From Octopus sinensis (lineage: Eukaryota): 64,000 nucleotides of DNA. Below the pieces are notes generated by a model. The model ran no database searches, was not told the DNA's origin, and was given only the letters and a program-made list of their open reading frames with translations. A program made the position numbers and the translations under genes. How positions within the stretch are numbered: the first letter of the stretch is position 1; the number at the start of each line of letters is the position of its first letter. Location: positions 125,860,001 to 125,924,000 of the forward strand of contig NC_042997.1 in NCBI RefSeq assembly GCF_006345805.1, in the 5' to 3' direction. Below are positions 4,600 through 48,750 of the stretch, one piece after another.

Positions 4600-5292
4600 C
4601 TTGTGCTGGTGCCACATAAAAAGCACTTGTTACACTTTGTAGAGTGGTTCGTGTTAAGAAGGGCATCCAGGTGTAGAATCTATGCCAAAACAGACAATGG
4701 AGCCTAGTGCAGTTTCTGGCCTTGCCAGCTCCTGTCAAACTCTCCAATCCATGCCAGCATGGAAAACGAATGTTAAATGATAATGATGATGATAACAATG
4801 ACAAGACCATTCTAAGGATCAGCTAAATCATTCATCCGACATTAATTGGTCCATTTTAGAACTCAGTCATCAAATTCCTATATAACACCTTTCTTGAAGA
4901 TCTGCCAACTTCCAATAAAGCAAAACTTATTTTACACGAACTTAGTTACCCGCGTCACTTTACTGGCATGTGAACAAAACATTCAAGCGAGGTCGTTGCC
5001 AGTGCCACTGGACTGACTCCTGTGCAGGTGGCGCGTAAAAAACACCATTGAGATTGTGGTCGTTGCCAGTACCGCCAGACTAGCCCTCGTGCAGGTGGCA
5101 CATAAAAGCACCCACTAAACTCTCGGAGTGGCTGGCATTAGGAAGGGCATCCGGCTGTAGAAACTCTGCCAGATCAGATTGGAGCTTGGTGCAGCCATCT
5201 GGTTTGCCAGTCCTCAGTCAAATTGTCCAACCCATGCTAGCATGGAAAGCGAATGTTAAATGATGATGATGATGATCATCATCATCATCATG
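4600..5292 (+). mobile_element. Two RTE 3'UTR copies (4600-4800, 4955-5292)
   Basis: GAAGGGCATCC motif and (GAT)n tails. Confidence 0.7.
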
Positions 5293-33419: not shown

Positions 33420-33771
33420 GTGACAATCGTTGCCAGAGCGACTATCTAGCCTCTGTGCCGGTGGCACGTAAAAGACACCATTCAAGCATGATCGTTACCA
33501 GCATCGCCTTACTGGCATCTGTGCCGGTGGCATATGTAAATGATTTGAGCAAGGTCATTGCCAGTACTGCCTGACTGGCCCCATGTCGGTGGCACGTAAA
33601 AGCACCCACTACACTCTCAGAGTGGTTGGCGTTAGGAAGGGCATCCAGCTGTAGAAACTCTGCCAGATCAAGATTGAAGCCTGGTGCAGCCATCTGGTTC
33701 GCCAGACCTCAGTCATTCGTCCAACCCATGCTAGCATGGAAAGCGGACGTTAAATGATGATGATGATGATG
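33420..33771 (+). mobile_element. RTE 3'UTR copy
   Basis: Tandem GTGCCGGTGGCAC units, GAAGGGCATCC motif, (GAT)n tail. Confidence 0.75.
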
Positions 33772-34350
33772 AATCAAGGTCTACAGTGTTGTCAGCAGTG
33801 AAGGTGACACCATACCACTCCACTTCTTCCCTGAGAGGCCTAGGCTGAACATCATTTGCTACACCTGTGTTCTGGATGAGGTGGTAAGGCCCTGGATCAA
33901 CAGAGTAGCTGCTGGGAGGCCATACATGCAGCAGCATGACTCTGCGCCCTGCAAAAACCAGCCAGAAGACCCAGGCCTGGCTATCAAAGAATTTCTTCAA
34001 TCACACAATACCTGACATTTGATCTCTCAACTTGTCTGATTGCAACCCCATCGACTTCTTTGTGCAGGGGCATGGTGGAATGAGAGACCAACAAATCTAG
34101 CTGCAACATAAAGGACAAGCTGTGGGTTAGGATTACCAGGTCCTCATGAACCTAAAACAGGAGAGAGTGACGAAGGCCCGTGGCGGGTTCCAAGGTTGCC
34201 TGGAGGCTGCCATCAAGGTCAGAGGTGGATTCAGTGAGTGAGATTGATAGAACATGTCATGAAGACAAACTTATCCAAATTTATATCTAAAAAAATAATA
34301 ACACTGTTTGATTTTTCCCTGAGACAGTCATCATGTGAACAACCCCTATA
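33772..34350 (+). mobile_element. maT/DD37D-type transposase remnant
   Basis: VLDEVVRPWINRVAAGRPYMQQHDSAPC...DCNPIDFFV; homologous to 56602-56871. Confidence 0.65.
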
Positions 34351-43863: not shown

Positions 43864-43900
<37 letters not shown>

Positions 43901-43904
43901 ATAT

Positions 43905-44424
43905 ATCATCATTATCATCATCGTTTAACGTCCACTATCCATGCTGGCATGGGTTGATCGATTTGACTGAGGACTGGCGAACCAGATGGCTGTACCAGGC
44001 TCCAATCTGATCTGGCAGAGTTTCTACAGCTGAATGCCCTTCCTGATGCCAACCACTCTGAGAGTGTTGTGGGTTCTTTTACTTGCCACCGGCACGAGGG
44101 CCATTTAGGTGTTACTGGCAACAGCCACGCTCAAATGTTGTTTTTACATGGCACCTGCACAGGAGCTAGTCCAGCAGCACTGGCAACGACCTCACTTGAA
44201 TATTTTCCCACGTGCCAGTAAGGCGACGCTGGTTGCAATCACACTTGAATGGTGCTTTTTATGTGCCACTGGCACAGAAGCCAGTCAGCTACTCTGGCAA
44301 TGATCACACTCGGATGGTGCTCTTAGCACTCCACTAGCACAGATGCCAGTCATCGAATTTGATTTCAATTTCACTTGCCTCAACAGGTCTTCGCAAGCAG
44401 AGTTTAGTGTCCAATGAAGGAAAG

Positions 44425-47280: not shown

Positions 47281-47557
47281 ATATATATATATATATATAT
47301 AAATATATGTATATATATGTGTGTGTGTATATATATGTATATGATATATGTATATATATGCATATATATATATATATGTGTATATGTATATGTATATATA
47401 TGCATATATATATGTGCATATATATATGTGCATATGTATATGTATATGTGTGTATTTGTATATATATATATATATGCATATATGTATATATAGATAGATA
47501 TATATATATATATATATGTACATATATATATGTCTCTATATATATGTATATATAATA

Positions 47558-47624
<67 letters not shown>

Positions 47625-47627
<3 letters not shown>

Positions 47628-48220
47628 AATATTAATATTAATTTTATTGACTTTTTGTATGGTTATACATTTTAATGAACTGGACTGTTTTATATATATA
47701 TGTATATATATGTCTGCTTTAAATTTAAATGTGAGTGTACATGTATTTCCTTGATGTTGGTTATAGAACTATGAGTCCAATATAGAAAATAATTGTGTTT
47801 GTTAATGTATACTGATATATTTTTGTTTATATTGTATTAATGTGTATATATATATGTGTAGAATTATGAGTGTCTATGCACACATTTTTATATTTTATAT
47901 TTTTATATTTATATGTAAATTTTTTTCATACTTATATTAAATTCTCTGAAGAGGCCGTGAGACATCCTTGTTAATGTCTCATTTATACCTGCTTTATATG
48001 ACTAATAGGTTAAATGAGACATACCTGTCTTCACGGCCGAAACAGCTGTCAGATATGATGTAATTGTATTTTCTATTTCTATTTCCATGTCTAGTTATAT
48101 TTGCAATATATTATGTATAATGTCATTGCTGTTATGTAATGGTTTAATAAAGTATTGATTGGGTATTATCTGATGGTTGATGATTGATTTAGGTATGTTT
48201 CTCCATTTTCTCATTTTGTA
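47625..48220 (+). mobile_element. Penelope-like element 3' end carrying a hammerhead
   Basis: AT-rich segment between (TA)n tracts containing the 47943 hammerhead; its end (48145-48220) resembles 35715-35790. Confidence 0.55.
47943..48053 (+). ncRNA. Type I hammerhead ribozyme (PLE-type) with extended stem II
   Basis: Stem I TCT/AGA; core CTGAAGA 47946-47952; stem II GGCCGTGA (47953-60)/TCACGGCC (48031-38); GAAA 48039-42; palindromic stem III AC-AGCT-GT; GUC cleavage triplet ending 48050. Confidence 0.75.
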
Positions 48221-48242
48221 TATATATATATATATATACATA

Positions 48243-48750
48243 TCATCATCATCATCATCGTTTAACATCCGCTTTCCATGCTAGCATGGGCTGGACAATT
48301 TGATTGAGGACTGGTGAACCAGATGGCTGCACCAGGCCATCTTGATCTGGCAGAGTTTCTACAGATGGATGCCCTTCCTAACACCAACTACTCTGAGAGT
48401 GTAGTGGGTGCTTTTATGTGCCACCGGTACGAGGGCCATTCAGGTGGTACTGGCAACGGACACAAAAAAAATCGGTTTTTTTTTCGAAGGTTGTGCTTCA
48501 CCACTTCATCCCAGGTCTTTCTGGGTCTACTGCTTCCACAGGTTCCCTCAACTGCTAGGGTATGGCACATTTTCACACAGCTATCCTCATCCATTCTCGC
48601 CACATGACCATACCAGCGCAGTCGTCTCTCTTGCACACGATATCTGATGCTTCTTAGGTCCAACTTTTCTATCAAGGTACTTACACTCTGTCGAGTATGC
48701 ACACTGACATTACACATCCATCTGACCATACTAGCTTCATTCCTCGCAAG
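48243..48750 (-). mobile_element. RTE C-terminal ORF fragment plus 3'UTR
   Basis: MVRWMCNVS...VQERRLRWYGHVARMDEDSCVK...RPRKTWDEVV followed by 3'UTR and (GAT)n. Confidence 0.85.

Follow-up and report, generated by a model that had tools for sequence, protein, structure and literature searches.

The closest described systems to the motif analysed here are the hammerhead ribozymes of Penelope-like elements (PLEs), in particular those of the Hydra clade. The function of PLE hammerheads is called "still unclear" in the account of these elements by Craig et al. 2021 (PMC8557442), section 11 of which marks the Hydra clade by DKT rather than DKG, RWK, a CxCX5C linker, the lack of CCHH, and CxxC/CxH around a conserved E and N. 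The Hydra families published there are shorter than 3 kb. One of them, Hydra-1_Obim of Octopus bimaculoides, is 2507 bp long, lies in (TA)n without a pseudo-LTR (pLTR) and carries a compact hammerhead. In the 26 rows given there for the clade, stem II has 3–7 nt per strand and a loop of 3–10 nt, and helix II never exceeds 24 nt; for the whole hammerhead table the maximum is 53 nt, in a plant element marked there as deviating.

Cervera and de la Pena 2014 (PMC4209133) describe the hammerheads of metazoan PLEs as poor cleavers in vitro that are expected to work as dimers, and already term a helix II of 7–8 bp "larger than usual". For the Anolis Poseidon element PAc, whose PLE hammerhead lies near the start site of reverse transcription, the parts of PMC11167929 on the ribozyme report cleavage only with the element's protein, and core mutants without effect on insertion in vitro. 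This published work fits a weak or assisted ribozyme. The passages of PMC3088659 on stem II, insertions, and large or extended loops mention no very long helix II. Nor did a search of open-access text on hammerheads in PLEs of octopus and other cephalopods, which led only to PMC8557442 and an unrelated twister paper, find a long-armed variant in print.

The window (the whole 64-kb stretch of octopus DNA that was analysed) contains such a long-armed variant at 47943–48053 on the plus strand. Direct reading of the sequence shows a type I hammerhead with all canonical core bases present, made up of the following parts.

47943–47945, plus strand: 5' strand of stem I, UCU, with its partner AGA at 48051–48053
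47946–47952, plus strand: catalytic core C3–A9, CUGAAGA, from sequence reading and from column counts in 92 model matches
47953–48038, plus strand: helix II, 86 nt, from folds and covariation
47953–64 / 48026–38, plus strand: outer 12-bp helix of helix II, with bulged U48030
47974–85 / 48011–22, plus strand: inner 12-bp helix, which includes an 11-bp helix named in the first-pass annotation
47987–91 / 48006–10, plus strand: apical 5-bp helix, from the predicted fold
48039–48041, plus strand: core G12 A13 A14, GAA, each base unchanged in 90–91 of the 92 model matches
48042–48049, plus strand: stem III and palindrome ACAGCUGU, with A15.1/C15.2 at 48042–43, then AGCU, then G16.2/U16.1 at 48048–49
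48050, plus strand: C17, with the predicted cut 3' of this base, placed by its position in the motif
48051–48053, plus strand: 3' strand of stem I, AGA, from sequence reading

The predicted cleavage site is thus between 48050 and 48051, the triplet GUC ending at 48050. G10.1 (47953) pairs with C11.1 (48038) and closes helix II, and A15.1 (A48042) pairs with U16.1 (U48049). The intact core, the G10.1–C11.1 pair, the GUC site and the palindromic, dimer-type stem III that the first-pass annotation had described can all be read directly at 47943–48053.

The sequence ACAGCUGU is a perfect 8-nt palindrome, able to form 2 bp and an AGCU loop within a monomer, or 8 bp between two molecules. In published Hydra-clade hammerheads, as tabulated in PMC8557442, stem III has a loop of 1–3 nt; here there is none, and hence the perfect palindrome. 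The stem III word acag/ctgt is found in several of those families, as here, and the CUGAAGAG core is shared between Hydra-1_Obim and the octopus motif. When two copies of the motif were cofolded, ACAGCUGU formed an intermolecular duplex (−87.5 kcal/mol, against 2 × −38.9 kcal/mol), a gain from dimerisation through the palindrome predicted in silico at ~10 kcal/mol. Within the monomer, the pair probabilities of stems I and III in the thermodynamic model were at most 0.06. Stem I had been noted earlier as only 3 bp long in this copy. The length is correct, but the shortness is not peculiar to the copy, 2–3 bp being the state of its whole family (family A, below); a second family, B, reaches 7 bp, while published Hydra-clade stems in PMC8557442 have 3–11 nt per strand, mostly 4–7. 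The minimal dimeric hammerheads set out in PMC4209133 share with the octopus motif a short stem I, a lengthened helix II, palindromic 15.2–16.2 positions and G10.1–C11.1. They differ in lying in both flanking pLTRs, where here there is one hammerhead per element, with a helix II tenfold longer.

That helix is the unusual part of the motif. Its outer helix, GGCCGUGA-GACA / UGUC-U-UCACGGCC, has 12 bp and one bulged U, and the nested helix is UGUCUCAUUUA / UAAAUGAGACA; both had been proposed from the sequence, and both are recovered with pair probabilities of 0.5–1.0, mostly at least 0.9. The motif folds at −38.9 kcal/mol (z = −4.84), and none of 200 shuffles did as well. The proposal that the insertion is branched was not supported: in both the minimum-energy and the centroid fold, helix II is a single long unbranched hairpin with internal loops, 86 nt in all. 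Its excess over published PLE hammerheads, pointed out in the first-pass annotation, is borne out: 86–100 nt in the octopus families as against a maximum of 7 bp plus a loop of up to 10 nt (24 nt in all) in the 26 Hydra-clade rows of PMC8557442.

Rfam hammerhead models gave no match at gathering score, and no hammerhead family was among the Rfam matches to 47800–48200 at E up to 10. The probable reason is that helix II is ~65 nt too long for these models. As this motif shows, hammerheads whose helix II carries a long insertion escape descriptor and Rfam searches, so surveys of PLE hammerheads may under-count them. A script scan found no second copy of the motif in the 64-kb window. Across the genome, the pattern CTGANGAGGCC-N70–100-GGCCGAAACAGCTGTH had 291 exact matches, versus 0 for the reversed control, and a DNA search of the 2.72-Gb genome returned 1785 first-look candidates, of which the 40 that were scored proved 96–100% identical. 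From the pattern matches and three DNA searches of the genome we defined four families.

Family A: the window's family, with several subfamilies; 96–100% identity among scored copies; helix II of 86 nt
Family B: ~1.16 kb, non-autonomous, with a defined 5' end; at least 1421 candidates; 99–100% identity among scored copies; helix II of 100 nt
Family C: B-like, with an intact core; helix II of 100 nt, or 92 nt in one shortened copy
Family D: at least 792 candidates; 86–95% identity among scored copies; helix II of 97 nt

The long helix II, the same near-invariant palindrome ACAGCUGU and a related 3' terminus are common to all four. Family B is the youngest and most uniform, and family D is older. 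The hammerhead core is intact in A and C, has a G.U at 10.1–11.1 in D, and has C at position 4 in B. Family D (L086–L115; for example L087:1512-1647, minus strand) has the core CUGACGA and a perfect 10-bp base of helix II. In family B (L036–L065; for example L038:1516-1654, minus strand) the 5' end carries a ~55-nt inverted copy of the element's own 3' terminal segment. Sm-alpha of Schistosoma is a short, abundant, non-autonomous SINE-like repeat with a compact type I hammerhead that cleaves. Family B, at ~1.16 kb, is comparable to it, differing by C at position 4 and by the 100-nt helix II.

The window copy belongs to a transposable element that could be delimited by comparison of thirty loci with 1.5-kb flanks (the window copy and 29 others).

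47400–47620, no strand assigned: microsatellite rich in (TA)n on the upstream side of the copy, into which the element inserted
~47621–48243, plus strand: 5'-truncated family A copy, the 3'-terminal ~620 bp of the element, by homology to 29 other copies
48132–48225, plus strand: conserved 3'-terminal segment ending ...UUUCUCCAUUUUCUCAUUUUGUA before (TA)n, by identity among families

All 29 compared family A loci (29/29) have a common 3' boundary just before (TA)n and scattered 5' ends, and the same pattern was seen at 27 loci of family B and 26 of family D. We interpret shared 3' ends with scattered 5' ends as the footprint of target-primed reverse transcription. (TA)n flanks the window copy on both sides and is found 3' of most other copies as well; from the motif to the 3' end of the element is about 170–190 nt. 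The full-length family A element measures ~5.1 kb in three compared copies, a fourth being truncated, and includes a 3' UTR of ~2.7 kb. Its ORF is frameshifted in 4/4 copies inspected. Four long copies had no second hammerhead upstream of the ORF, and no upstream repeat.

A sequence search with the ORF yielded 12 homologues of 620–803 aa (E 8e-87 to 7e-43); one weak hit of the search bears an Octopus bimaculoides name. Their alignment shows RWK/RWR, DKT, YRDD, CxCX5C, GIY..YIG..R..H and CxxC..E..N..CxH, with no CCHH, and the ORF pieces of one octopus copy (L033) align along all 12, with YRDD and VVYQ..YIGAT..KQRL..H. Visible in the octopus copy are also DKT, CxxC–E and the X5C part; the CxC reads CNF in this decayed copy, and the RWK region is upstream of its open ORF piece. 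By this alignment, the element encodes an RT followed by a C-terminal GIY-YIG endonuclease. Pfam detected no RT in the ORF pieces of two copies or in the homologues, and GIY-YIG in 1/12 homologues (E 0.0033); a Pfam run on the ORF pieces of two copies and four homologues gave no match, and neither did a profile search of solved structures with the ORF. The Hydra protein sequences in the supplement of PMC8557442 are visibly alike.

The attribution of the hammerhead to a PLE in the first-pass annotation is therefore borne out, since the motifs of the element and its homologues match Hydra-clade PLEs. As described in PMC8557442, these share with the octopus element the C-terminal GIY-YIG, DKT, CxCX5C, the lack of CCHH and insertion in (TA)n, and their hammerheads are likewise sense-strand, type I, and ~100–200 nt from the 3' end. 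Two traits of the clade, (TA)n insertion and a hammerhead near the 3' end, are present in family A, and two others, short size (<3 kb) and pLTRs, are absent. The lack of pLTRs is shared with the published octopus family Hydra-1_Obim, than which the present element is twice as long (2507 bp there), with one hammerhead per copy. Against the other published Hydra families below 3 kb, too, it differs by its 5.1 kb and its ~2.7-kb 3' UTR. The listed motifs, rather than an RT phylogeny, thus point to a PLE of the Hydra clade as the host. The copy in the window is itself a dead 5'-truncated fragment with no evident effect on its host.

Minor features of the family were noted along the way. The long 3' UTR of family A contains internal ~105-bp repeats (L031:7444-7872). 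In the ORF at L033:5755-7170, a low-complexity stretch rich in Asn, absent from most homologues, lies between RT and endonuclease. The copies at L019:2699-2831 and L042:1103-1231 are 5'-truncated within the hammerhead itself and carry just the 3' half of the motif.

Covariation across genomic copies was assessed with a covariance model built from 36 representatives, which found 92 copies in 84 sources, a subset of 115 loci. Among 77 distinct rows, 79.8% of cells were paired, compared with 31–46% when partners were slid by 1–3 columns, in a fitted alignment that leans towards the model structure; an unfitted MAFFT alignment gave 77.5% paired and a score of 0.150. The covariation score of the 77 rows was 0.160, against 0.028–0.079 for slid partners; 0/500 shuffles reached 0.160, a test that kinship of the copies inflates, so that the slid-partner controls are the fairer comparison. 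Double-sided changes were seen in 7/12 outer-helix pairs and 5/15 inner pairs of these distinct copies. Helix II does covary between families. Stem I had 86% of cells paired and 0 doubly changed pairs in the same 77 copies, and stem III, with 2 bp in the monomer, hardly varies among them and is uninformative.

The pairs of family D were counted directly, because both the MAFFT and the model alignment place its gap in helix II one column off. The base of its helix II has 10 pairs in 19/30 copies, 9 in seven and 8 in four. Pairs 5–8 are U-A, A-U, U-A and G-C in family D versus G-C, U-A, G-C and A-U in family A, four doubly changed pairs in a row. The 86–100-nt helix II is maintained by compensatory changes in families A–D. 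Core bases are conserved across copies, each being unchanged in 87–91 of the 92 model matches with the exception of U4 (73 U, 18 C); 91 matches have a base other than G at H17 (58 A, 32 C, 1 U).

Conservation is also uneven along the element. Between families A and B, identity is 65% over the upstream 103 nt, 82% in the hammerhead block, 59% in the spacer (48054–48131) and 84% over the last 94 nt (48132–48225), leaving the hammerhead block and the last ~95 nt as conserved islands. Against family D, all four segments are 54–62% identical, meaning that only core, palindrome and pairing survive there; over the last ~40 nt the identity to that family is 90%. That the non-autonomous family B retains the two blocks, hammerhead and 3' tail, suggests that they are needs of the copying machinery. 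Sequence, position in the element and covariation all mark the motif as a genuine PLE-type hammerhead. What is new here is a helix II extension of ~65–75 nt retained in four families, together with a natural series of core variants.

Position U4 is near-invariant in hammerheads, and the older mutational literature shows that its change lowers activity. In family B this position is C in 211 exact 22-mers genome-wide, versus 8 with U, which may be products of CpG-to-TpG decay. In family D, 28/30 copies have the G.U at 10.1–11.1. Since the youngest family has C at core position 4, cleavage is likely dispensable for spread; taken together with the G.U of family D, this makes catalysis probably dispensable for spread. 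The RNA part recognised by the element's protein for copying would be the hammerhead block with its long helix II plus the 3' tail. The long helix II would stack away from the core and remove the usual contact between loop II and stem I, a loss that would make the ribozyme a slow, "minimal" type. The findings on PAc reported in PMC11167929 are in keeping with a family B that has spread with an altered core, although PAc belongs to another clade (Penelope/Poseidon) and its hammerhead overlaps the ORF start in tandem.

Several points speak for activity: the full core in A and C, and in D bar the G.U, and the predicted gain on dimerisation. Against it stand the 2–3-bp stem I of family A, the impossibility of a loop II–stem I contact, the G.U of family D, the C4 of family B, and the lack of tandem partners that could share a transcript (no same-strand neighbour within 5 kb for the first 100 matches listed). 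Catalysis by family A is thus a prediction. We consider it likely that the motif is the hammerhead of a dead 5'-truncated Hydra-clade PLE copy, predicted to cleave after C48050 only as a palindrome-paired dimer or with the assistance of protein.

A more speculative reading, which we regard as possible rather than probable, is that in this PLE lineage the hammerhead has turned into a protein-recognition module, the RT selecting the fold (core junction plus ~90-nt helix II) and catalysis being optional. If true, the hundreds of near-identical C4 copies of family B would amount to a catalytic-mutant experiment done by nature, and would show PLE hammerheads kept for binding, not cutting. The four families of differing age form an allelic series for asking whether cleavage, dimerisation or the fold alone is needed for retrotransposition.

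It is unlikely, in our judgement, that cleavage has ceased in every family and that the block is a hammerhead-derived relic, retained as a structured 3'-UTR element bound by the RT/endonuclease. This would account for the 211-to-8 excess of C4 in the 99–100% identical family B, the G.U in family D, the short stem I and missing loop II–stem I contact of family A, the lack of an Rfam hammerhead match, and covariation that sits in helix II and not in the core; it would also accord with the continued insertion in vitro of Anolis PLE core mutants described in PMC11167929. Yet families A, C and D retain C3–A9, G12–A14, A15.1–U16.1 and H at 17 while their flanks fall to 54–65% identity. A hairpin-binding site alone would need neither 15 single-stranded bases nor a palindrome, and published relatives of the same clade tabulated in PMC8557442 have canonical hammerheads at the same place. 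We accordingly prefer the reading of a hammerhead that would cleave as a dimer or with protein.

A retrozyme-like cycle, in which transcripts of tandem hammerhead units are cleaved at every hammerhead and the pieces are then ligated to give circular RNAs, is very improbable. The motif shares type I and a palindromic stem III with animal retrozymes, family B (~1.16 kb) is short and non-autonomous, and a preprint (bioRxiv 10.64898/2026.07.22.740005) proposes that vertebrate retrozymes derive from PLE terminal regions. The genomic arrangement is different. None of the first 100 listed matches of the family A pattern has a same-strand neighbour within 5 kb. For family B, the first 100 listed include a single same-strand pair, whose spacing of 2.2 kb does not fit head-to-tail units of 1.16 kb. 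Copies are dispersed and 5'-truncated and end in a fixed 3' tail, and the assembled contigs of four sequencing runs, weak evidence as contigs only, contain no back-joints. We rejected the retrozyme reading on this arrangement.

Among the same first 100 matches listed for family A there are 8 head-to-head inverted pairs, 0.4–3.9 kb apart. Head-to-head inverted pairs are a hallmark of PLEs. One of those seen here is C4:31049251(−)/31049826(+).

The first-pass annotation also suggested that GAGACA could pair with alternative partners, so that a conformational switch would be possible. Helix II would then be a riboswitch-like element in which GAGACA and UGUCU(C) words re-pair and turn the ribozyme on or off. 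We give this scarcely any credence. Two GAGACA words (47959–64 and 48016–21) and two complementary words (47975–80 and 48026–31) are indeed present, each alternative hairpin having 6 pairs, and the one on the 5' side might fold before the other as the RNA is transcribed. However, with the alternative hairpins enforced the fold has −29.9 rather than −38.9 kcal/mol, 9 kcal/mol less stable, and the pairs of these hairpins have a probability of 0.0. Family B, which keeps 4/6 pairs of the 5' alternative hairpin, has the words in weakened form, and family D lacks them despite its long helix. Moreover, both folds share the outer 7–8 bp beside the core, which would leave the core unswitched. As a conserved mechanism the switch was rejected on energy and lack of conservation; a transient co-transcriptional hairpin may form in family A.

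Chance resemblance to a loose hammerhead descriptor within AT-rich repeats can be practically dismissed as an explanation of the motif. Its core words are short and it has no Rfam match, yet the pattern matched 291 times against 0 for its reverse, the fold has z = −4.84, compensatory changes run across four families, and the place in the element is that of the published relatives in PMC8557442.

Among 24 sequencing runs, all stored as assembled contigs and none recorded as RNA, the contigs of four were compared with the site; they bridge 48050/48051 and show no starts or ends. Position 48001 of the window is A. All contigs of these four runs read G there, as do the remaining family A copies, which makes the A a private change of the window copy in the apical loop of helix II.

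A weak hammerhead-like relic (13.9 bits, E 0.22) that shares the 3' half GGCCGAAACAGCUGUC was noted at L034:6174-6260 on the minus strand. It is located upstream of a full-length copy of family A, at a distance of ~1.1 kb, and may belong to another family. In the window, a SINE-like repeat at 48244–48400 begins directly behind the (TA)n/(ATC)n tract that lies downstream of the PLE copy. The same repeat occurs in at least 12 other places in the window, for example at 43881–44065, 33613–33772 and 5119–5279, in copies 72–90% identical and on both strands.
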